A stretch of DNA of 40,000 bases from an uncultured Kistimonas sp. (lineage in GTDB: Bacteria; Pseudomonadota; Gammaproteobacteria; Pseudomonadales; Endozoicomonadaceae). The stretch covers positions 2,966,188 to 3,006,187 of the forward strand of contig OZ220224.1 of the NCBI GenBank assembly GCA_964291485.2, read 5' to 3'. Positions 3,840 to 24,643 of this stretch are shown here, in pieces. The notes below the pieces were generated by a model that ran no database searches, had not been told where the DNA came from, and saw nothing but the letters and a program-made list of their open reading frames with translations. The stretch's first letter is position 1. Each line of letters begins with the position of its first letter. Made by a program: the position numbers and the translations under genes.

Positions 3840-3916
3840 TGGTCGGAGCGAGAGGATTCGAACCTCCGACCCCCACAACCCCATTGTGGTGCGCTACCAG
3901 GCTGCGCTACGCTCCG
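3840..3916 (-). tRNA. tRNA-Pro (anticodon GGG), 77 nt with encoded CCA
   Basis: The reverse complement folds by hand into a cloverleaf: CGGAGCG/TA/GCGC/AGCCTGGTA/GCGC/A/CCACA/AUGGGGU/UGUGG/GGGUC/GGAGG/TTCGAAT/CCTCT/CGCTCCG/A/CCA. The anticodon loop reads A-U-GGG-G-U. Confidence 0.95.
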
Positions 3917-8905: not shown

Positions 8906-9793
8906 TCAGAACAACAACCTGTATTGCTCAAAAAGTGCTTTCCCTATCTGAACAATGGCCTCATTGCGCTGTTCAAATGATGCATCCGTCTGCGAGATAT
9001 AGATGCTCACAATAATGGCCGCCCGTTTTTCAGGCCAGACGACAGCAGTGATTCCACGGGAACCATAACCGCCCGCACCGGAACGATCAGCAATCTGCCA
9101 GCCGGTGGGCAAAATGGAGCGCAGCAGGTTATCGGCTACCTGGTTGTCCTTCATCCACTGCATCAACTGCGCTTGCGCATCAGGTGATAACGCCTTGCCA
9201 AAAAGTAACGTATTGAGCGTGGTTGTTATTGCGTTTGGAGTGGTTGTATCACGTGGGTCGCCGGGGCTGGCTTCGTTAAGCTCAGTTTCAAAACGATCCA
9301 ACCGGGTGGCAGGGTCACCCAGATCTCGCAGAAACTGCGTCAGCGCCTGCGGTCCGCCGGTATTTTTAAGAATGATATTTGCCGCCGTATTGTCACTCAT
9401 CCGCATGGTGGCGGCACAGGCCTGCTCGAGCGAAATGGATTGACCAACCTGCTCCTCCAGCACCGGCGACCATGTCAGCATCGATGCTTTCTCAACGAGA
9501 ACCGGGTGATCCAACGTGATCTTGTCTTCTGCAACATCGCTCAATAGTTTGGCGCAGGCAAGCGTTTTAAACGTGCTCATCAAAGGGACGCGTTCGTCCC
9601 CATTGTGGTTCCAGCGCTTTTGTGTGGCTGTGTCGTACACTGACACGCCGACATGGGCATTCAGTGTTTTTTCCACATTATTGATAACCTGCAATACAGA
9701 GTCACCTGAGCCCGCCCACGCAGAGGTAATACTCATTAACAACGCAACAAACACGCAAACATTCAAAGAGGGAAAACGACTATTCAATGACAT
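8906..9793 (-). CDS. bla: class A beta-lactamase, CARB/PSE (carbenicillinase)-like
   Basis: Signal peptide. STFK (Ser70-x-x-Lys), SDN, ETELNEA (Glu166 omega loop). RSGAGGYGSRG has RSG in place of KTG/KSG, which I recall as typical of PSE-4/CARB enzymes. Confidence 0.85.
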   Translation of the reverse strand: MSLNSRFPSLNVCVFVALLMSITSAWAGSGDSVLQVINNVEKTLNAHVGVSVYDTATQKRWNHNGDERVPLMSTFKTLACAKLLSDVAEDKITLDHPVLVEKASMLTWSPVLEEQVGQSISLEQACAATMRMSDNTAANIILKNTGGPQALTQFLRDLGDPATRLDRFETELNEASPGDPRDTTTPNAITTTLNTLLFGKALSPDAQAQLMQWMKDNQVADNLLRSILPTGWQIADRSGAGGYGSRGITAVVWPEKRAAIIVSIYISQTDASFEQRNEAIVQIGKALFEQYRLLF

Positions 9794-14748: not shown

Positions 14749-14782
14749 CAGCTAACAAAAAACACCTGAAAGTTGTTAGCTG
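14749..14782. other. 10-bp perfect inverted repeat with CTAAC/GTTAG cores (degenerate attC-like palindrome?)
   Basis: CAGCTAACAA (14749..14758) / TTGTTAGCTG (14773..14782) with a 14-nt loop, between two minus-strand ORFs. It is too short (34 bp) for a canonical attC. Confidence 0.3.
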
Positions 14783-14843: not shown

Positions 14844-15716
14844 CTAAAGATGCCCTTGTTGCAGGCTGAAAAAAACACTGTTCTTCTTGTCTAATAATCC
14901 AAGGTCTAGACCTTCTATATGCCAATCTAGGTTGAACTTTTTCGGATGAGGTTTGTTGCCAGCCTCATATAAGGTATTAACAAAAGCTCTATCGTTTAAT
15001 TTTGCATCGTGATCGATGATAATTTGTGAATAATGATCAGCCATTCTGATTAAATACATTGGGTGGCCTGACGTCATTATCGGATTATTCATATATACTG
15101 TTCCAGGCTCCATACCAAGCGTCGTATATTTTTCGTGAATTTTCCACATTCTCTCACGCTCTTCATTCATCTGACCATTTTCATCAGCAAACTCGAATAC
15201 TGAATGATCAAATATACCAATCGCATGTAGTGTGTCTCTACTTACGAATGCAAATAAAACTTCATCAGTCCTTTTTGATAACCCTGATTTCTCAATTTCC
15301 ATGTTTAAGTGGAAATGATGAAACCCTTTAGTATTGAGGATTTGATCTTTATCCTCCCAAGCATCAACTTCACCATCTTTTATCCGTTGTACTAGCGTAT
15401 ATCCATTTTTGTGAGCCCGTCGTGATAGAAATGGATGTAGATCTTCCCCATTTCTTACTTTATTGAGAAGATCATTGATGCTTTCTTTGAGATTTTTGTA
15501 TCTTCTGTCAGCAGTAAGTTCAGGAGCGCGTTGAACTGTACGGATTCTGGTAGGTACTTGTCTTGTCTGCCAATGAAGATAGTGAATCACCACATCACTT
15601 ATGCTCTGAGACTCAAGCTCTTCAAGTGTTTTTTTATCATTTGGAAAGAAAGGTAACTCTTTAATCAGTTTATCTTTCAACCGTTTTATCGAATTTGACT
15701 CTTCCATATACTCCAT
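14844..15716 (-). CDS. hypothetical protein (cassette-borne, no recognisable domain)
   Basis: A 290-aa ORF in a markedly AT-rich segment. It begins about 45 nt after the reconstructed attC-C R' core. Confidence 0.55.
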   Translation of the reverse strand: MEYMEESNSIKRLKDKLIKELPFFPNDKKTLEELESQSISDVVIHYLHWQTRQVPTRIRTVQRAPELTADRRYKNLKESINDLLNKVRNGEDLHPFLSRRAHKNGYTLVQRIKDGEVDAWEDKDQILNTKGFHHFHLNMEIEKSGLSKRTDEVLFAFVSRDTLHAIGIFDHSVFEFADENGQMNEERERMWKIHEKYTTLGMEPGTVYMNNPIMTSGHPMYLIRMADHYSQIIIDHDAKLNDRAFVNTLYEAGNKPHPKKFNLDWHIEGLDLGLLDKKNSVFFSLQQGHL

Positions 15717-15760
15717 ACTTAATAACTAGAGTTGATTGAGTGATTTGATGTAAGCGCATA

Positions 15761-17598
15761 ATCGGGATAGGGCGAAGCCTCACAGCTCCGCTCCTCCCAC
15801 ACCACCGGCCATACGGATCACGTAACACGGCGGTTCAAATTACTTTGTGTTCATCTTGCCGCCAGTTCTGGCAGCCCAAGGTTCTTAAAGTACTTGTTTG
15901 GCAAAGCGTATCGTAGAGCTGGACTACCACTTAAACGCCACGGCCCGTGCGCAGACTTGGCTGTATTCCATGCCAACCATCTGTCTACACCTAATCGCCT
16001 TAACATTCGGTAGCCCTTACGATCCCATTGTTTCCAAACATAACACCGCAATCGTCGTCGAACCCATTTGTCCAGACACCGCAGAGGACTCAGTATTTCA
16101 GCGATGTCGAAATACGCTTTCCAGCCAAGCAGGGATTTTCTCAGCTCTGCGATAATCTGGGTGATTGAATGGCCTCTCGTTCGACGGCTCAGCTCTTTGA
16201 CGGTCGCCTTCAATTTGACCAGTGCTTTATCGCTGACCTTCACTTTCAGTTCCCGTCGACTGAACGTAAACCCAAGGAAGTTACATTCCCAAGGTCGACC
16301 TACTCCACTCTTTTGGGTATTCACTGTGAGTCGCAGCGATTCTCCAATAAAATGTTGCAGGCTTTTCATCACGCGATCACCCGCGGCCTGACTTTTAACG
16401 AATACCACAAAGTCATCAGCATAACGAGCGAACCTGAGGCTCCGCTTTTCCAGTTCCCAATCCAGATTATTCAGCACGATGTTTGAAAGGACAGGCGACA
16501 GTGGGCCGCCCTGTGGTACCCCTTTCACACTGGCTTGTTTTATTCCATTGATGCAGACACCGGCTTTCAGATAACGATTAATTAATCGCAACAGCGTGGC
16601 ATCTTCCTGATGTGTCTTGAGTTGCATCATCAACAGGTCATGGTTGACGTTGTCAAAGAACGCTTCAAGATCACAATCTACCACCCAGTCATATCCACTC
16701 TTGAAAGCAGCCTGAGCATACCCTATCGCCTGATGAGCATTACGGTGTGGACGAAAACCATAACTGCTGTCATGGAATTGATCGTCCCACTCCTCCTGCA
16801 TAATCTGGGCAATAGCCTGCTGTATCAGGCGGTCAAGAACGGTAGGAATTCCCAACTTACGTTTGCGTCCATCCGGTTTAGGGATTTCGACCCGCAAGAC
16901 GGGTTTGGGTGAGTAAGTCCCTTCTATAAGTTGCTTCCGTAACATCGGCCAGTATTGCTTGAGGAAGCCTGGAAGGTCGTCAACGGTCATGCCGTCCACG
17001 CCCGGAGCTCCTTTATTGCGTTGAACCTGTTTCAGTGCACGTACCAGATTGTTCCTATCCAGTACCCGCGCCATCAAAGATGAACAAAAGGTGGATTTTG
17101 GCTCAATCAGGTCTCCCGATTCCGGTTCATCCTCCGGAGTTTCCAGAGACAACGACTGTTGTTTAACAGATGCCATCCGAAACCACTTCCCCGATGATTA
17201 CTCTCCGAGATTTGTTCAGGCCTTCAGTGACGAGAGGTCACCTACTATGCCTTCTGCTGACTTCTGCACTGCGATCACACCGGATTGCTCCCATGTCAGT
17301 TAATCCCTCAACACAATGCAGACCTCCCGAGGTAAGGCACTTAACTTTCATCGCGTAGACGCCCAATTTATAAAACGTATCCCGATTGCAGATGGAGGGC
17401 TTAATGGTCACGTGCCCACTGGCCCCGAATACGTCACACCTCATATTGGATTCTTGTTCATCGCCCCGCGATTTTGCGTTGGGCTTCCTTCAGACCCTGC
17501 CTCGCGACAACGCCCTTGCCCTTTCGCTAACCTTCGGCTCTGCGAATACCTGGTAAGAGGACTTTCACCTCTCTAGTTAAGTGCCATGCTCGGCACAC
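15761..17598 (-). mobile_element. group II intron, bacterial class C-like, inserted in an attC site
   Basis: On the minus strand the 5' end reads GTGTGCCGAGCATGGC (GUGYG). An RT/maturase ORF lies in domain IV. A domain V-like ACCGCC...GGCCGGT helix sits at about 15800..15830, and the 3' end reads ...CUAUCCCGAU. The element is about 1.84 kb with no En domain. Boundaries are inferred (plus or minus a few nt) from GUGYG and from restoring AAGC-GT|TA. Confidence 0.75.
15851..17176 (-). CDS. group II intron reverse transcriptase/maturase
   Basis: RNKGAPGVDG, GVPQGGPLSP, YADDFVVF (RT motif 5), and a C-terminal maturase (X) region. There is no HNH endonuclease tail. Confidence 0.92.
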   Translation of the reverse strand: MASVKQQSLSLETPEDEPESGDLIEPKSTFCSSLMARVLDRNNLVRALKQVQRNKGAPGVDGMTVDDLPGFLKQYWPMLRKQLIEGTYSPKPVLRVEIPKPDGRKRKLGIPTVLDRLIQQAIAQIMQEEWDDQFHDSSYGFRPHRNAHQAIGYAQAAFKSGYDWVVDCDLEAFFDNVNHDLLMMQLKTHQEDATLLRLINRYLKAGVCINGIKQASVKGVPQGGPLSPVLSNIVLNNLDWELEKRSLRFARYADDFVVFVKSQAAGDRVMKSLQHFIGESLRLTVNTQKSGVGRPWECNFLGFTFSRRELKVKVSDKALVKLKATVKELSRRTRGHSITQIIAELRKSLLGWKAYFDIAEILSPLRCLDKWVRRRLRCYVWKQWDRKGYRMLRRLGVDRWLAWNTAKSAHGPWRLSGSPALRYALPNKYFKNLGLPELAAR

Positions 17599-17682
17599 AC
17601 GCTTGGTTCAGCCGCGCCGCCGACGGCGGCGTCGGGTGGAGGGGCGAAGCCCCGGAACGAACTGGAACCATTTGTTAGAAGC
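17599..17682 (-). other. integron attC-like site C (its R' core is split by the intron; the remaining 5 nt + flank lie at 15754..15760)
   Basis: Minus strand: GCTTCTAAC-AAA-TGGTTCCAG-(50 nt containing GGGGCTTCGCCCC and CGCCGCCGTCGGCGGCG hairpins)-CTGAACCA-AGC-GT|intron|TATGCGC. The L'' arm carries one extra C relative to L' (an extrahelical base). Confidence 0.65.
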
Positions 17683-18890
17683 TATTGGTCGATAGCTGGT
17701 ATGAACTCTTCTTTTTCTAATATTCTTACTAGGCTTCGCATGAGAAAGTTATTAGTAAAATTAACATAATAAGTTCTTGAGTTTTCTTGTATTGGCTTAA
17801 TGAATCCAGACTCTTTCATTTTTGCTAATTGATGCGTTCGTTGCCTAGATGTCAACTCCGGCAATGGTTCATCAAGATCTATGGCTTTAAATCGCTGTTT
17901 TTTAATGCCTACTCTCAATATTTTAACTTCTGTTTCATTTAGGTATCCACGTTCAACACCAAGTTCAATAGTTGGAATGAGAATATTTTTATAAAGAAAA
18001 CCAAAGTCAAGAAGCTTATTAACTTTAGTAACTTCATCCAAAATACCTGTTAATACATACTCACACCATTCTAGTAATGCACTATCATCCGCAGAATCAG
18101 CTTTAGTTAAGTTCTGATAATATTGATCTCGATCATTACAAAACACAGCTGTTGGATTAAGAATTTTTCCATCTTTGACATTAAATCCATATTTAATCAA
18201 CATAGCGTACGTTAATAACCTAACAACTCTGCCATTTCCATTACCAAAAGGATGTATCCATGTAAATCGGTGATGAGCTATCGCAGTTTTTAACAGATCG
18301 TATTTTCCAGCTTCATCTTTATTTATAAAAGCTAATAATTCATCCATATACCCCTGAACTGAATTATGTTCAGGTGGCAAATGAGTTGATTGGGAAATCT
18401 CCACGCTCCATGTTCTATATGCGCCAGGAGTCCTATCACCTTCTTCGTTAAGTCCATCTACAGCTAAATGGTGCAACTCTCTTATAAAATGATGAGTTAT
18501 TTCAGAGCCTTCAGAAATGCTTTGCTCTATGTAGTCCATAGCACTTTCAACATTAGCAATTTCAGAATATCGCTCTGTGGAGCGTTCATTATGTTCGATT
18601 TTTTGCTCTATATATTCAGATATAGTTGTCCGGTTACCCTCTATACGGGCTGAACCGACACTTTCCATAATATGGAAAATTTGCTTAAGCTGGAAGAAAA
18701 TCCAAGGTGCAGTGGTTCCACCAAGCCTCTGCTTTCTAAGGTGGTTCAACTCCATCAATGTATCAGTTAGATTAGAGTCAAAACTTGGACTTACTAACTT
18801 CAAGTCAAAGTGGTTAAATGAGGCGCTCATATCTTCATTTTGCCTACGCAACATATTGATATTAAAGGACTTATTCTCCGGCTTGCTCAT
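17682..18890 (-). CDS. Fic family protein (class II: N-terminal inhibitory helix, Fic core, C-terminal winged-helix-like domain)
   Basis: Fic motif HPFGNGNGRVVR (HxFx[D/E]GNGRxxR with Asn at the D/E position). Inhibitory motif SARIEG (S/TxxxE[G/N]) upstream. 402 aa and very AT-rich. Confidence 0.85.
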   Translation of the reverse strand: MSKPENKSFNINMLRRQNEDMSASFNHFDLKLVSPSFDSNLTDTLMELNHLRKQRLGGTTAPWIFFQLKQIFHIMESVGSARIEGNRTTISEYIEQKIEHNERSTERYSEIANVESAMDYIEQSISEGSEITHHFIRELHHLAVDGLNEEGDRTPGAYRTWSVEISQSTHLPPEHNSVQGYMDELLAFINKDEAGKYDLLKTAIAHHRFTWIHPFGNGNGRVVRLLTYAMLIKYGFNVKDGKILNPTAVFCNDRDQYYQNLTKADSADDSALLEWCEYVLTGILDEVTKVNKLLDFGFLYKNILIPTIELGVERGYLNETEVKILRVGIKKQRFKAIDLDEPLPELTSRQRTHQLAKMKESGFIKPIQENSRTYYVNFTNNFLMRSLVRILEKEEFIPAIDQ

Positions 18891-18999: not shown

Positions 19000-19035
19000 G
19001 CTTCTAACGCCTGCATCAGCCGACGCCGTAGGCGG
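19000..19035 (-). other. integron attC-like site B, R'-proximal half
   Basis: Plus strand: GCTTCTAAC-GCC-TGCATCAGCCGAC-GCCGTAGGCGG. It pairs with 20322..20345 once the IS is removed. Confidence 0.7.
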
Positions 19036-19071
19036 TGATCTTCCCCCGATAAAATGGACACCCTTCTACAG

Positions 19072-19956
19072 CTAAGCTGCCGCCTCGTATTCTACCGGAG
19101 ATTGATAATTAAGGCTTGAGTGCAGTCGAGCACGGTTATAAAAATGCTGTATATATCCAGCTAATGAATCACGTAGGTGGTGAACACTGCGGAATGTGGT
19201 TCCAGTAATCAACTCACCTTTCAATGAATGAAAAAATGATTCCATCTCCGCGTTGTCAGTGCATCGGTAGGCGCGATTCATACTGGGTATGAACCCATAG
19301 CGTTTATGTACGTTATGAAGCTCTGTGGCTCGGAATTCGATGCCTTGGTCTGAGTGAAAAACAAGCCCTTTCGGAGGGCGTCGATTTCTGATGGCCATCA
19401 ACAGGGCAGCTTTGGTTAAAGCCGCTGTCCGGTTGTTTTTTAGCGACCATCCAACGACTTTCCGTGAATACAGATCCAGCACGACAGCCAGGAACATCCA
19501 TCGTCCTTGTAGTTTTATATAGGTCACATCCGACGTCCAGTGCTGGTTAATCGCCGTTGGCTTGGGGAGATCTTTGCGAATGTTAGGCACAGGGTCACAA
19601 GCTCGTTGTGGCAGAGGCTTTCTGCGATAAATGCGAGCCACACGGCCTTTCAGTTGAGCTTCTCGCATCAAGCGCTCTACGCGTTTTCTGCCAACACTTA
19701 TCCCCTGGTTACGAAGCACCTTGAAGATGCGCGGGCTTCCATAGCGTCCCTTGCTTTTATCAAAGACAGACTGGATGCGCTGTAAAAGCAACTGGTCATC
19801 AAGTTTACGCTGACAAGGCTTTCGGTTTCGCCAAGCATGAAAGCCACTGCAGGTAACATTCAGACGTTTACAGAGAAAGCGAATCCCGAAACGCTGATGG
19901 TGGAACCCTATGAACGCGAATCTTTCCTGCGTTGTTCCGCGAGAAACGTTTCCCAC
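19072..19956 (-). CDS. IS3-family transposase OrfB (DDE integrase core), made as OrfAB by -1 frameshift
   Basis: HSDQGIEF, TDNAEMESFF. Overlaps orfA. The slippery A6G (CTAAAAAAGTGG on the minus strand) lies at 19956..19962. Confidence 0.9.
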   Translation of the reverse strand: MGNVSRGTTQERFAFIGFHHQRFGIRFLCKRLNVTCSGFHAWRNRKPCQRKLDDQLLLQRIQSVFDKSKGRYGSPRIFKVLRNQGISVGRKRVERLMREAQLKGRVARIYRRKPLPQRACDPVPNIRKDLPKPTAINQHWTSDVTYIKLQGRWMFLAVVLDLYSRKVVGWSLKNNRTAALTKAALLMAIRNRRPPKGLVFHSDQGIEFRATELHNVHKRYGFIPSMNRAYRCTDNAEMESFFHSLKGELITGTTFRSVHHLRDSLAGYIQHFYNRARLHSSLNYQSPVEYEAAA

Positions 19957-20264
19957 TTTTTTAGAAAATCGACCTCTTTTTTGAGAGCGGCATTCTCGGC
20001 CTCGAGTTTCTTGATCCGCTCGCTGTCAGTCAGCTCTTTTTTTCTGGGGATAGTCTCAAGATTTCTGGAGACTTTGCGTTCATCGGCCACAAGACTGCCC
20101 TCAAAATATTCTTTGCGCCAACGAGACAACATAAACGGATGGATGTCTAGGTAGGCAGCGACATCTTTGATCATCACACCAGGTTTGAAGGTCATTCGAA
20201 CAGCACTGACTTTGTACTCATTGGTGTAGCGACGCGTTGGTTTATCAGGTCTGTAACTTGTCAT
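19908..20264 (-). CDS. IS3-family transposase OrfA (HTH + leucine zipper)
   Basis: 118 aa. YTNEYKVSAV, RWRKE, and a C-terminal coiled coil (KKLEAENAALKKEVDFLKK). Confidence 0.9.
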   Translation of the reverse strand: MTSYRPDKPTRRYTNEYKVSAVRMTFKPGVMIKDVAAYLDIHPFMLSRWRKEYFEGSLVADERKVSRNLETIPRKKELTDSERIKKLEAENAALKKEVDFLKKWETFLAEQRRKDSRS

Positions 20265-20318
20265 TTAAGCACCTCATTGGATTAGGAATGAGGTGTCCAC
20301 AAAAGCGGGGGAAGTTCA

Positions 20319-20345
20319 CGGTCGGCTGGATGCACTTGTTAGCAG
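20319..20345 (-). other. integron attC-like site B, R''-proximal half (first 3 nt are the IS target duplication)
   Basis: Plus strand: (CGG)TCGGCTGGATGCA-CTT-GTTAGCAG. On the minus strand, CTGCTAAC contains the TAA stop of the upstream ORF. Confidence 0.7.
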
Positions 20346-22404: not shown

Positions 22405-23541
22405 TCACGATCCATTGTGGCGGGTCGGATCCCGGCCTCGCCGAAATCGCTCTTTGATGACCAGCGGTTTTCGACATGTCGGACAACAGGCCTGCGCTGC
22501 CCTTCCTACGGTTACCAGATAGGCTTGCCAGCTCAACGAGGTGTCTGATTCAACGACACACTGTTGTTTATGCGCCTCCCGGGCTCGGTTCAGAGCTGCA
22601 CGTTTGCCACTGGTATAGAGTCCATAGCTACGGACGGTTCGCTTACCTTTGTCGGGAACATGAATCAGCAATTGCCTGATAAAACCTGTTTTTGAAAACG
22701 ACTGGATTTCAGTTTTACCCGACTGATGACTCTGATACTTCAGTTGAATGCTATCTTCGTTGAGGCTGATCTGTTGATTATTGATCGGGCCACCTTTTAC
22801 ATAGCGAGCCAGGTAGTTAATGACGCCGTTGCCATGGTTATACGGTTTCATGACTTCAACGTGCCAGTCTGCTCGTCCAAGCTGGTTAATCATGTGACTG
22901 AACCCCGTCTGGCCGAGTGATTCCGGCACTCTAAGGGATTCTGACCTCATCGCAGCGCAGAATTTTCCCCGGAAAAGTCTCATCACGACTTTGAAGGGTA
23001 GAAAGCAACCTTTAACCGGAGCTATCCATTGTCCCTTGCGAGTGAGTCCACCATTCGTTACCAGGCAGTGTATATGAGGATGCAGACTGAGGTTTCTGCC
23101 CCATGTGTGCAGATTCAATAAGAATCCACTGTCCGCTCCCAGGTATTTTTTATCATTCAATAATGTTTTCATCGTCTCGCTGACAGCATTAAACAGAATG
23201 TCAGTCATCAGACGAGTATTCATCAACCAGAGTTCGTTGAACTGATGAGGAATAGTGAAAACCAGATGGCGATGTGAGGTATTAATCAGTAATTGGCTCT
23301 TTGCGCTTAACCAACGTTCAACCTGAATCTGATTACATTGCGGACAGTGCCGGTGTTTACAGGAGTTGTACCAGATTTTGCTGATATGTCCGTCCGGGCA
23401 ACTTTGTATGTGCCCGCCCATGGCTGCCGTACGGCAATTTATAAATGCGTTAGCGGCCCGGTAATGATGCAGTGGCAGTCTTTTGTTTTTGGTATATGCT
23501 TCAAAGGATTTTTTGAAAACCTTTTGTATTGTGGTTTTCAT
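22405..23541 (-). CDS. IS91-family transposase (zinc-binding N-terminus + Y2 HUH domain)
   Basis: CPDGH...CKHRHCPQC zinc-ribbon motif. LVFTIP. HPHIHCLVTNGGL (HUH-type motif). YLARYVKGGPI. 378 aa. Confidence 0.88.
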   Translation of the reverse strand: MKTTIQKVFKKSFEAYTKNKRLPLHHYRAANAFINCRTAAMGGHIQSCPDGHISKIWYNSCKHRHCPQCNQIQVERWLSAKSQLLINTSHRHLVFTIPHQFNELWLMNTRLMTDILFNAVSETMKTLLNDKKYLGADSGFLLNLHTWGRNLSLHPHIHCLVTNGGLTRKGQWIAPVKGCFLPFKVVMRLFRGKFCAAMRSESLRVPESLGQTGFSHMINQLGRADWHVEVMKPYNHGNGVINYLARYVKGGPINNQQISLNEDSIQLKYQSHQSGKTEIQSFSKTGFIRQLLIHVPDKGKRTVRSYGLYTSGKRAALNRAREAHKQQCVVESDTSLSWQAYLVTVGRAAQACCPTCRKPLVIKERFRRGRDPTRHNGS

Positions 23542-23715: not shown

Positions 23716-24140
23716 ATATTATCTTTCATCGCTAACCACATAACCCCCTGTTTATAAACGAGAAAACATCCATATTCCAAATCACTCCCAATATTTCTCA
23801 AACACTCTGATGCTGTTGGCAAACGCCTGTTTGAATGATCCGCTGTCGCACTGGGCAAGGCGCTGAGCAACCGATGATGGCCAGCTGCGCGACACAGCCT
23901 GGAACACCCTGAGCGACTAAACACCTCAACTGTCAACGGCAACCAAGCCGGGCAATATCGTGAAATACCCTGCCAACACCCCATTTGCAGACAGTGACTT
24001 ATCCTGAATGACAGACACGCTACCGCCCGAAGGTGAGACCTGACCGGTTATAGATCAGGCGGAGCATGGGCCTCACTAGCTCGTTACTGCACGGCTGTAC
24101 AAGAAAATTGGGTTATCTAATCACACTTTGCAGGCTTCAG

Positions 24141-24247
24141 CCATGGTGCCGGTCAACGCCGAATGGCAGTGCGATCAGTTGTCTTTTGTCGTTTAGTACC
24201 CACAACGTGGTTTTGGGAGGAAATCAACAGAAAAGGATTCTTTCAGC
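24141..24247. repeat. 107-bp direct repeat, copy 1
   Basis: Identical by inspection to 24370..24476 (CCATGGTGCCGGTCAACGCCGAATGG...GGATTCTTTCAGC). Confidence 0.9.
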
Positions 24248-24307
24248 TTAACGCCCGAAAGCGATTGTCGATGATTCAGACCAGTGAAAGGACCCAAAAC
24301 GTGTTTT

Positions 24308-24358
24308 GTCGGAGCGAAAGGATTCGAACCTCCGACCCCCACAACCCCATTGTGGTGC
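24308..24358 (-). pseudogene. 51-bp fragment of tRNA-Pro (3' half, discriminator to anticodon arm); att-type scar
   Basis: GTCGGAGCGAAAGGATTCGAACCTCCGACCCCCACAACCCCATTGTGGTGC matches 24569..24619 of the intact gene with one mismatch (A versus G in the T-arm). It lacks the 5' half. Confidence 0.85.
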
Positions 24359-24369
24359 AAGAAAACGAG

Positions 24370-24476
24370 CCATGGTGCCGGTCAACGCCGAATGGCAGTG
24401 CGATCAGTTGTCTTTTGTCGTTTAGTACCCACAACGTGGTTTTGGGAGGAAATCAACAGAAAAGGATTCTTTCAGC
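24370..24476. repeat. 107-bp direct repeat, copy 2
   Basis: Identical to 24141..24247. Followed, like copy 1, by TAACGCCCGAAAGCGAT ... TCAGACCAGTGAAAGGAC and then tRNA sequence. Confidence 0.9.
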
Positions 24477-24566
24477 ATTCCGACAGTAACGCCCGAAAGC
24501 GATGGATGCGATGCAAGAAAACGATGATAAGCAGAGAGAAAAATCAGACCAGTGAAAGGACAAAAC

Positions 24567-24643
24567 TGGTCGGAGCGAGAGGATTCGAACCTCCGACCCC
24601 CACAACCCCATTGTGGTGCGCTACCAGGCTGCGCTACGCTCCG
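24567..24643 (-). tRNA. tRNA-Pro (anticodon GGG), second identical copy
   Basis: 77/77 identical to 3840..3916, with the same cloverleaf. Confidence 0.95.

Follow-up and report, generated by a model that had tools for sequence, protein, structure and literature searches.

The window analysed here is a 40,000-nt stretch of DNA from an uncultured Kistimonas sp. of the Endozoicomonadaceae (contig OZ220224.1). On its minus strand, a group II intron interrupts an integron attC site between two cassette open reading frames (ORFs). The intron was confirmed to be complete, with exact ends, and to lie on the top strand of the attC in the same orientation as the cassette ORFs. Comparison with its relatives makes it very probable that it is a complete, probably mobile class C (IIC) intron of a separate lineage with the attC top strand as its target. 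The features of the locus, in the order in which they are read on the minus strand, are the following:

17682..18890, minus strand: upstream cassette ORF of 402 aa, Fic/DOC family (Pfam Fic, 1.2e-16), co-oriented with the intron
17599..17682, minus strand: attC, 5' exon side, with R'' GCTTCTAAC, spacer AAA, L'' TGGTTC[C]AG, a variable region, L' CTGAACCA, spacer AGC and the GT of R' (direct reading and fold)
15761..17598, minus strand: complete class C group II intron of 1838 nt, 5' GUGUG...3' AU (Rfam D1-D4 matches; occupied versus empty aadA1 attC)
17177..17598, minus strand: 5' ribozyme part, domains I-III and the start of IV (RF02001 and RF01998)
17410..17413, minus strand: exon-binding site 1 (EBS1), 5'-ACGU-3', located in GGGCACGUGACC, the terminal loop of a hairpin in domain I, and predicted to pair with intron-binding site 1 (IBS1) (G/A)CGT (loop alignment covariation)
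15851..17176, minus strand: intron-encoded reverse transcriptase (RT)/maturase of 441 aa, YADD intact, no endonuclease domain (Pfam)
15801..15834, minus strand: domain V, 34 nt, with the catalytic triad CGC at 15830-15832 (fold and RNAalifold)
15763..15799, minus strand: domain VI, with the bulged branch-point A at 15768, 7 nt from the 3' splice site (fold and covariation)
15754..15760, minus strand: remainder of the R' core (TATGCGC), with which the 3' exon and the next cassette begin; T15760 is IBS3
14844..15716, minus strand: downstream ORF of 290 aa without a Pfam family, co-oriented, beginning 45 nt past the intron

The occupied site reads TAG-CTTCTAAC-AAA-TGGTTCCAG...CTGAACCA-AGC-GT ↓ GTGTGCCGAGC...CCCGAT ↓ TATGCGC on the minus strand (arrows mark points of insertion or exchange throughout). 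The intron starts with GTGTGCCGAGC at 17598 and ends with CCCGAT at 15761, the 5' exon ends in ...CTGAACCAAGCGT with its last T at 17599, the 3' exon TATGCGC occupies 15760-15754, and the joined exons give GTTATGC. Taken alone, the 5' junction is ambiguous (GT/GT). This ambiguity was resolved because the empty aadA1 site is known independently: in plasmid pEC732_IMP14 a homologous intron is flanked by CAAGCGT↓ and ↓TAGATGC (...AACTCAAGCGT↓ and ↓TAGATGCACTAAGC), and its joined exons are 100% identical to the uninterrupted junction of the aadA1 attC and the 3'-conserved segment, a junction that at least 1674 plasmid records contain at ≥99% identity. The insertion therefore separates the first T of the R' GTT from the second. 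A preliminary description of this DNA had given the intron about 1838 bp, a GUGYG 5' end, an RT without endonuclease and a CGC-containing domain V, and had placed it in the R' core of an attC so that splicing would restore GTTATGC. The structural claims are all correct (Rfam, Pfam and fold give exactly 1838 nt), the placement is borne out by direct reading and by the empty aadA1 site, and the boundaries, which were to be sought in uninterrupted attCs or other intron copies, are fixed by the aadA1 junction.

Both the RNA and its protein support an assignment to class C. The 5' part is matched by the Rfam families group-II-D1D4-3 (RF02001; 17337-17511(-), 126.7 bits) and group-II-D1D4-1 (RF01998; 17219-17299(-), 55.6 bits). 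The catalytic triad is CGC and not AGC, with its middle position forming the usual G-U wobble. The last 76 nt, which comprise domains V and VI, fold at -37.4 kcal/mol (z = -3.1), and of their 28 pairs 7 show compensatory double changes in an RNAalifold analysis of 15 lineage members, four in the domain V helix and three in domain VI. Together with the CGC triad, the small ribozyme (~510 nt), the 4-nt IBS1 and the hairpin upstream are traits of class C. The RT matches only RVT_1 (1.9e-40) and GIIM (7.5e-15) in Pfam, whose scan revealed no nuclease domain in the 441 aa. Among solved structures it is closest to the IIC enzymes, namely the GsI-IIC RT (401 bits) and the E. rectale IIC RT (331 bits), followed by the R. 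intestinalis/E. rectale maturases at ~280 bits. The RTs of other classes score far lower, with 138 bits for LtrA (IIA) and 108 bits for a IIB RT. The preliminary assignment to class C, which was to be judged by the RT, is thus upheld.

The host site has the parts of an attC, with the cores TTCTAAC and GTTATGC, in which AAC and GTT are conserved, and an L box formed by TGGTTC[C]AG and CTGAACCA. Its constrained DNA fold has a free energy of -20.5 kcal/mol and a bulged C in the 5' arm. Several properties agree that the minus strand is the attC top strand. R'' (GCTTCTAAC, 17682-17674) overlaps the stop codon TAG of the Fic ORF, and the start of the Fic cassette (TTAGAAGC, 19006-18999) is complementary to the cassette's own R'' (GCTTCTAA, 17682-17675). 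The 3' half of the site, GCGGCGCGGCTGAACCAAGCGTTATGC, resembles the top strand of the aadA1 attC, GCGGCGCGGCTTAACTCAAGCGTTAGAT, which also carries a bulged base in its 5' arm. The complementary strand thereby shows an extrahelical G on its R''/L'' side, the mark of the recombinogenic bottom strand. Because these signs (ORF direction and R'' stop, 5'-arm bulge, aadA1 likeness and cassette start) agree with the class 1 integron relatives described next, the top-strand, co-oriented placement proposed in the preliminary description is confirmed. The deciding evidence comes from class 1 integrons, where intI1, attI1 and the resistance genes anchor the orientation.

In class 1 integrons, relatives of the intron follow the attCs of aadA1 and aac(6')-Ib4; as in the window, they split GT↓T and read in the cassette-sense direction. 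The copy in pPp47 follows aac(6')-Ib4 in the array blaIMP-4-qacG2-aac(6')-Ib4 and shares 78% nucleotide identity with the intron of the window. The pEC732-type copy follows aadA1 in the array arr-2-cmlA5-blaOXA-10-aadA1 and is 68% identical, with RTs that are ~62% identical. Records L001 and L002 both have the intron on the strand of the resistance cassettes. At the aadA1 attC the intron is identical in eight IncC-type plasmids of Aeromonas, Vibrio, Shewanella, Escherichia, Klebsiella and Enterobacter (records L002, H75-H82), one of them from Enterobacter asburiae. A paper on two of these plasmids reported an intron maturase gene ‘itrA’ downstream of traA, the acquisition of which it called unclear, and did not discuss the intron in the aadA1 attC (PMC6591265). 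As controls, an S.ma.I2-like intron in a dfrA12-gcuF-aadA2 array lies antisense between a gene and its attC, and a second intron adjoining blaIMP-4 is likewise antisense. In each, ...TTGT↓ of the bottom strand precedes the insertion, the canonical arrangement (L031, L004), which is also what the preliminary description had given for the S.ma.I2 group.

Beyond plasmids, a scan of one genome per species revealed 24 loci with RTs 69-98% identical to that of the window, nearly all of them in Endozoicomonadaceae (Endozoicomonas, Sansalvadorimonas). The 5' junction ends in ...CGT at 20 of 21 genome loci, the exception being CAT in a degenerate copy, and the 3' junction has T at +1 in 17/17 and TA in 16/17. 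About 20 Endozoicomonadaceae insertions have a 5' exon ...RGCGT↓ and a 3' exon ↓TA(G/T). Most upstream sequences at these loci fold as an attC with (Y)TAAC, an AAR spacer, an L box bulged in its 5' arm, an RGC spacer and GT↓, and a co-oriented ORF ends 45-108 nt 5' of the intron in 11 of 14 loci. One Endozoicomonadaceae metagenome-assembled genome carries two 100% identical 1838-nt copies on different contigs (L006 3579-5416, L007 3579-5416), to both of which the copy in the window is 98.6% identical. Since the two identical copies occupy different attCs in a single genome, they indicate that the lineage has recently been mobile.

In metagenomes, a search with the first 23 nt of the intron retrieved at least 120 stretches with at least 104 distinct 5' flanks. 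Among the matches listed, 90 of 104 flanks end in NCGT (57 GCGT, 22 ACGT), and C stands at -3 in 92, G at -2 in 92 and T at -1 in 100. The NCGT flanks follow an attC hairpin of top-strand polarity: among the 65 listed flanks whose helix, folded without constraint, spans 8 bp or more, single-base bulges were more numerous in the 5' arm in 52 and in the 3' arm in 5, with equal numbers in 8. About 12 of the 104 listed flanks are rho-independent terminators with T-runs. Judged by the sequences of all these sites, the top-strand, co-oriented placement is a property of the lineage and not an accident of the Kistimonas locus.

The choice of strand can be related to the pairing of EBS1 with the 5' exon. 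The preliminary description had proposed comparing EBS1 with the exon junction, and the loop ACGU is indeed complementary to RCGT. Moreover, the EBS1 loop and the exon end covary across five lineages: ACGU with RCGT in the top-strand introns, ACAA with TTGT in the blaIMP-4-associated antisense intron, CAAG with CTTG in Endozoicomonadaceae bottom-strand introns, and CAUA with TATG and CAAU with TTTG in two terminator-homing introns of the IncC backbone. Alignment-based extraction found the loop GGGCACGTGAC(C/T) in 48 of ~58 listed metagenome copies at NCGT sites; among the copies behind terminators, those open to checking have other EBS1 loops. IBS1 (G/A)CGT consists of the last two bases of the 3' spacer of the attC top strand and the GT of R'. 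The spacers of attC are asymmetric: in the top strand, the 5' one reads AAC-AAN and the 3' one NGC-GTT. The 3' feet of the two folded strands therefore differ (GCGT↓T on top, TTGT↓T on the bottom), and a two-base difference in EBS1 would be enough to pick the strand. By itself the short motif would not suffice as a target, since the window contains 28 copies of GCGTTA that lack an intron. The large majority of insertion sites are preceded by a hairpin, and the 4-nt EBS1/IBS1 pairing is backed by covariation.

A neighbour-joining tree of 16 RTs with bootstrap is consistent with this division. The RTs of the top-strand introns form a clade with 100% bootstrap support, those of the bottom-strand attC introns form a separate clade (99%) that does not include the RT of the window, and those of the terminator-homing IncC and E. 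coli introns form a third (97%). Because its RT lies outside the bottom-strand clade, the intron is not, on this sequence evidence, a member of the S.ma.I2 (IIC-attC) lineage as defined.

Two further kinds of site came to light. Metagenome copies that share the 5' 23-mer and are sited at terminators lie on contigs L041, L044, L055, L091, L093, L102, L105, L108, L131, L141, L143 and L150. Those with enough sequence have a different EBS1 loop, for example ...CCATACA with the exon ...TATG, and may mark a transition between terminator homing and homing to the attC top strand. In addition, several attCs have been invaded from both sides by two class C introns that stand head to head (L009 ~690-765; L010, L029, L023 and L019, 5' end 3544; L024 7770-7860). 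At such sites the bottom-strand intron follows ...CTTG↓ or ...TTTG↓ at the R'' end, with the opposite-strand 5' end GTACGCCCGG, the top-strand member sits at the GT↓T of R', and ~44 nt of attC remain between the two 5' ends. Both introns were confirmed by Rfam D1-D4 matches on opposite strands. The bottom-strand partners appear to be inserted at G↓TT, a shift of one base from the canonical TTGT↓T.

The Kistimonas attC belongs to a short, integrase-less cassette cluster, in which two attCs are recognisable, both of them interrupted: one by the intron and one by an insertion sequence (IS) of the IS3 family.

19000..20343, minus strand: second attC, same strand, with an IS3-family element in its loop (sequence; transposase domains rve, HTH_21 and HTH_Tnp_1)

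The second attC has the same polarity and the same bulged C as the intron-bearing site. Its 5' half at 20343-20319 reads GCTAACAAGTGCATC[C]AGCCGACCG and its 3' half at 19035-19000 reads CCGCCTACGGCGTCGGCTGATGCAGGCGTTAGAAGC, with the IS at ~19036-20318. The element has ORFs at 19908-20264 and 19072-19956, terminal inverted repeats TGAACTTCCCCCG / TGATCTTCCCCCG and an apparent 3-bp CCG duplication. The R' of this attC (GGCGTTAGAAGC, 19011-19000) carries no intron at its GCGT↓TA site, and the hairpin of that site is disrupted. Downstream of the 290-aa ORF, which is not followed by a full attC, a perfect palindrome GCTAACAACTTTCAGGTGTTTTTTGTTAGC (~14750-14781(-)) has attC-like cores GCTAAC / GTTAGC 18 nt apart and could be a collapsed attC remnant or a terminator. 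A direct-repeat search of the window revealed no attC repeat family.

The cluster lies within a 20.7-kb interval between two identical tRNA-Pro(GGG) genes (3840-3916 and 24567-24643), which has the look of one genomic island, or of several in tandem, at tRNA-Pro. Beside the second tRNA-Pro gene lie a partial third copy (the 3' half of the tRNA, 24301-24384) and a 122-nt direct repeat (24139-24260 / 24368-24489). The G+C content of the interval is lower and patchy (0.37-0.53), and its cargo comprises the cassettes, two IS3-family elements, an IS91-family (Y2) transposase (22405-23541), WD40-repeat proteins and a class A beta-lactamase homologue (8906-9793). The IS3- and IS91-rich, tRNA-flanked island was considered as a cause of the position of the intron and was rejected, the target rule being the same in unrelated loci.

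Since an attC is nearly palindromic, its strands might have been confused, and the intron would then be an ordinary antisense IIC-attC intron of the S.ma.I2 type. Both strands do read RYYYAAC...GTTRRRY, and the window holds no intI or attI that would anchor polarity. However, ORF direction, R'' stop, 5'-arm bulge and the likeness to the aadA1 top strand all agree; the genuinely antisense introns of the same database follow TTGT, at the R'' end; the S.ma.I2 and blaIMP-4 introns form a 99%-bootstrap clade that excludes the RT of the window; and EBS1 is ACGU and not ACAA. The relatives in class 1 integrons, which are on the cassette-sense strand as anchored by intI1, already refute a misassigned strand, and we regard it as extremely improbable. 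Scarcely more credible is the idea that the palindrome is some other repeated extragenic palindrome and no integron attC at all. It draws on the presence of only two such sites, the lack of an integrase in the 40 kb and the lack of an attC repeat family, but it has to contend with the R''/R' cores, the 3-nt spacers, the bulged-C L box and the complementarity of the preceding R' TTAGAAGC to the cassette's own R'' GCTTCTAA, and with the bona fide aadA1 and aac(6')-Ib4 attCs that the same lineage occupies.

Of the alternatives, the one to which we give most room, though it too is very unlikely, is a generic terminator-homing IIC intron that came to lie behind an attC by chance, with specificity for neither attCs nor their strands. 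IIC introns in general insert after hairpins, the relatives in the IncC backbone are found after rho-independent terminators, and ~12 of the 104 listed metagenome copies with the same 5' 23-mer stand behind terminator-like hairpins. Against chance placement, 90 of the 104 listed flanks end in NCGT after attC-type hairpins of top-strand polarity, insertion is always at the GT↓T of R', a different EBS1 loop is present in those copies at terminators for which it could be checked, and the sites in Endozoicomonadaceae and plasmids are attC-like with few exceptions. We therefore retain a class C lineage that targets the attC top strand as by far the most probable explanation.

The integron integrase exchanges strands at the G↓TT of R'. 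The insertion point of the intron (G-T↓T-R-R-R-Y) lies one base 3' of this crossover, immediately 3' of the attC hairpin. A ribonucleoprotein of the top-strand lineage would recognise a folded single-stranded DNA hairpin together with 4+1 nt of IBS1/IBS3, as in other endonuclease-less IIC introns, and the hairpin in question would be the non-recombinogenic top strand of the attC, chosen by EBS1 through the asymmetric spacers. The intron would then reverse-splice into the DNA and be copied from a primer provided by the replication fork. An intron without endonuclease would need both single-stranded hairpins and such a fork-derived primer. The plus strand of the window has a negative GC skew throughout, and the intron-sense strand a skew of +0.075 over 38 kb; the attC top strand, on which the intron-sense sequence lies, would as the G-rich strand be the lagging-strand template. 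In 25 of 30 sedentary chromosomal integrons, the bottom strands are on the leading-strand template (PMC5371416), and sedentary arrays would thus offer top strands, not bottom strands, to such an intron.

An insertion that puts 1.8 kb between R' and L' should block recombination by IntI at this attC, which would fuse the Fic cassette to the next one. Because the intron is in sense orientation, it could be transcribed by read-through from the cassette promoter, its RT could be translated from the precursor, and the intron could be spliced out. Splicing would restore ...AAGCGUUAUGC... in the mRNA, and the ligated exons would be expected to read ...AACCAAGCGUUAUGCGC.... This route would be closed to antisense attC introns. 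They require an internal outward promoter to express the downstream cassettes (PMC3001079).

Several observations weigh against a top-strand lineage of this kind, or against parts of the mechanism. RF00029, the general model for domains V and VI, did not match the lineage even at E ≤ 0.1; the helices of both domains are nevertheless backed by covariation. This null result covers 15761-15850 of the window as well as the L001 and L002 copies. The same model gives 47-50 bits for the antisense attC introns and for the intron of the IncC backbone, and 50-60 bits for two other group II introns in L009 and L019; annotation pipelines that rely on RF00029 would overlook the 3' end of introns such as the one described here. 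EBS3 was not located in the intron. In the tree, which is based on a small taxon sample, the sister grouping of the two attC clades has a support of 48% only. We found no integron integrase or other tyrosine recombinase in the 40-kb window and no uninterrupted attC, as a loose TAAC...GTTR pattern gave chance-level, non-hairpin matches only. In the 6-10 kb around related loci, the sign of the GC skew varies, and a consistent signal comes only from the 38-kb flank in the window. Furthermore, we attribute hairpin recognition and lagging-strand-template use to the lineage by analogy with other IIC introns.

Taken together, these data suggest a wider reading, which we consider quite possible and advance tentatively: a large, formally unrecognised clade of class C introns would be dedicated to the non-recombinogenic top strand of attC, its strand choice would stem from a two-base difference in EBS1 (ACGU versus ACAA), it would flourish in chromosomal arrays whose top strands are lagging-strand templates, it would be the sole type of attC intron able to act as an intron of cassette transcripts, and the notion that attC introns are antisense would be an artefact of sampling clinical integrons. 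Integron reviews describe attC introns as antisense elements on the bottom strand that silence the downstream cassettes and compensate for this by an outward promoter. The top-strand lineage represents a second, mirror-image mode of attC invasion that is common in environmental DNA. The two kinds of intron would form a natural pair of related ribozymes that tell the two strands of one hairpin apart by a 2-nt change in the guide. Such a pair might be useful for understanding how IIC introns read DNA structure and which attC strand is single-stranded in vivo, and for intron-based models of cassette formation. Moreover, introns of this kind would lock neighbouring cassettes together, including aadA1 and aac(6')-Ib on IncC-type resistance plasmids, where annotation pipelines tag them only as ‘ltrA’.

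The literature places attC introns antisense in the bottom strand (PMC3001079, PMC7923331), with two reported departures from this rule. The first, recounted in PMC7923331, is a top-strand, co-oriented IIC intron in an attC of a class 1 integron from Enterobacter cloacae (Rodriguez-Martinez, Nordmann, Poirel, J Bacteriol 2012;194:150). The second is the intron of the Shewanella algae KC-Na-R1 plasmid, which was remarked in 2022 to have the same orientation as the cassettes (PMC9229058). The S. algae copy (CP033574) is of the pEC732 type, to which it is 99.9% identical, and thus shares lineage and GT↓T insertion point with the intron of the window. The E. cloacae intron plausibly belongs to the same lineage, because the pEC732-type intron is found in IncC-type plasmids that include one of Enterobacter asburiae. 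The setting differs, as these cases are from clinical class 1 integrons whereas the intron of the window lies in a chromosomal, integrase-less cluster of an Endozoicomonadaceae bacterium. The mirror-image target of the preliminary description thus stands as an arrangement, while its implied novelty does not, since both cases precede it. The arrangement is not unprecedented but known and barely documented, and what may be new is the picture at the level of the lineage: the literature searched contained no account of the Endozoicomonadaceae copies, the size of the lineage, the EBS1 difference or the doubly invaded attCs.

Among known systems, the IIC-attC introns of the S.ma.I2 lineage (Quiroga, Centron, Leon, Roy) share with the top-strand introns class C, the lack of an endonuclease domain, an attC hairpin as target, insertion into a GTTRRRY core (GT↓T) where the folded hairpin has its 3' foot, a 4-nt IBS1 and IBS3 = T. 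The S.ma.I2 lineage differs in that it uses the bottom strand at the R'' end, antisense to the cassettes, with IBS1 TTGT and EBS1 ACAA, and its RTs form a separate clade with 42-46% identity. Unlike S.ma.I2-type introns, the sense-oriented intron of the window would need no outward promoter. The terminator-homing class C introns (L003 and L005 of the IncC backbone; B.h.I1 type) have the same RNA and RT architecture and also combine a hairpin with a short IBS1, with RTs that are 43-47% identical. However, their target is a rho-independent terminator, they insert 10-11 nt past the stem in the T-run, and their EBS1 is CAUA or CAAU. Finally, the group IIB1 intron UHB.I2 from a hypersaline metagenome (PMC7923331) is, like the intron of the window, oriented with the cassettes and placed immediately downstream of an attC, but it belongs to class IIB1/CL1, lies outside the R' core and is one for which no conserved exon motif was found, whereas the Kistimonas intron and its relatives are inserted within that core.

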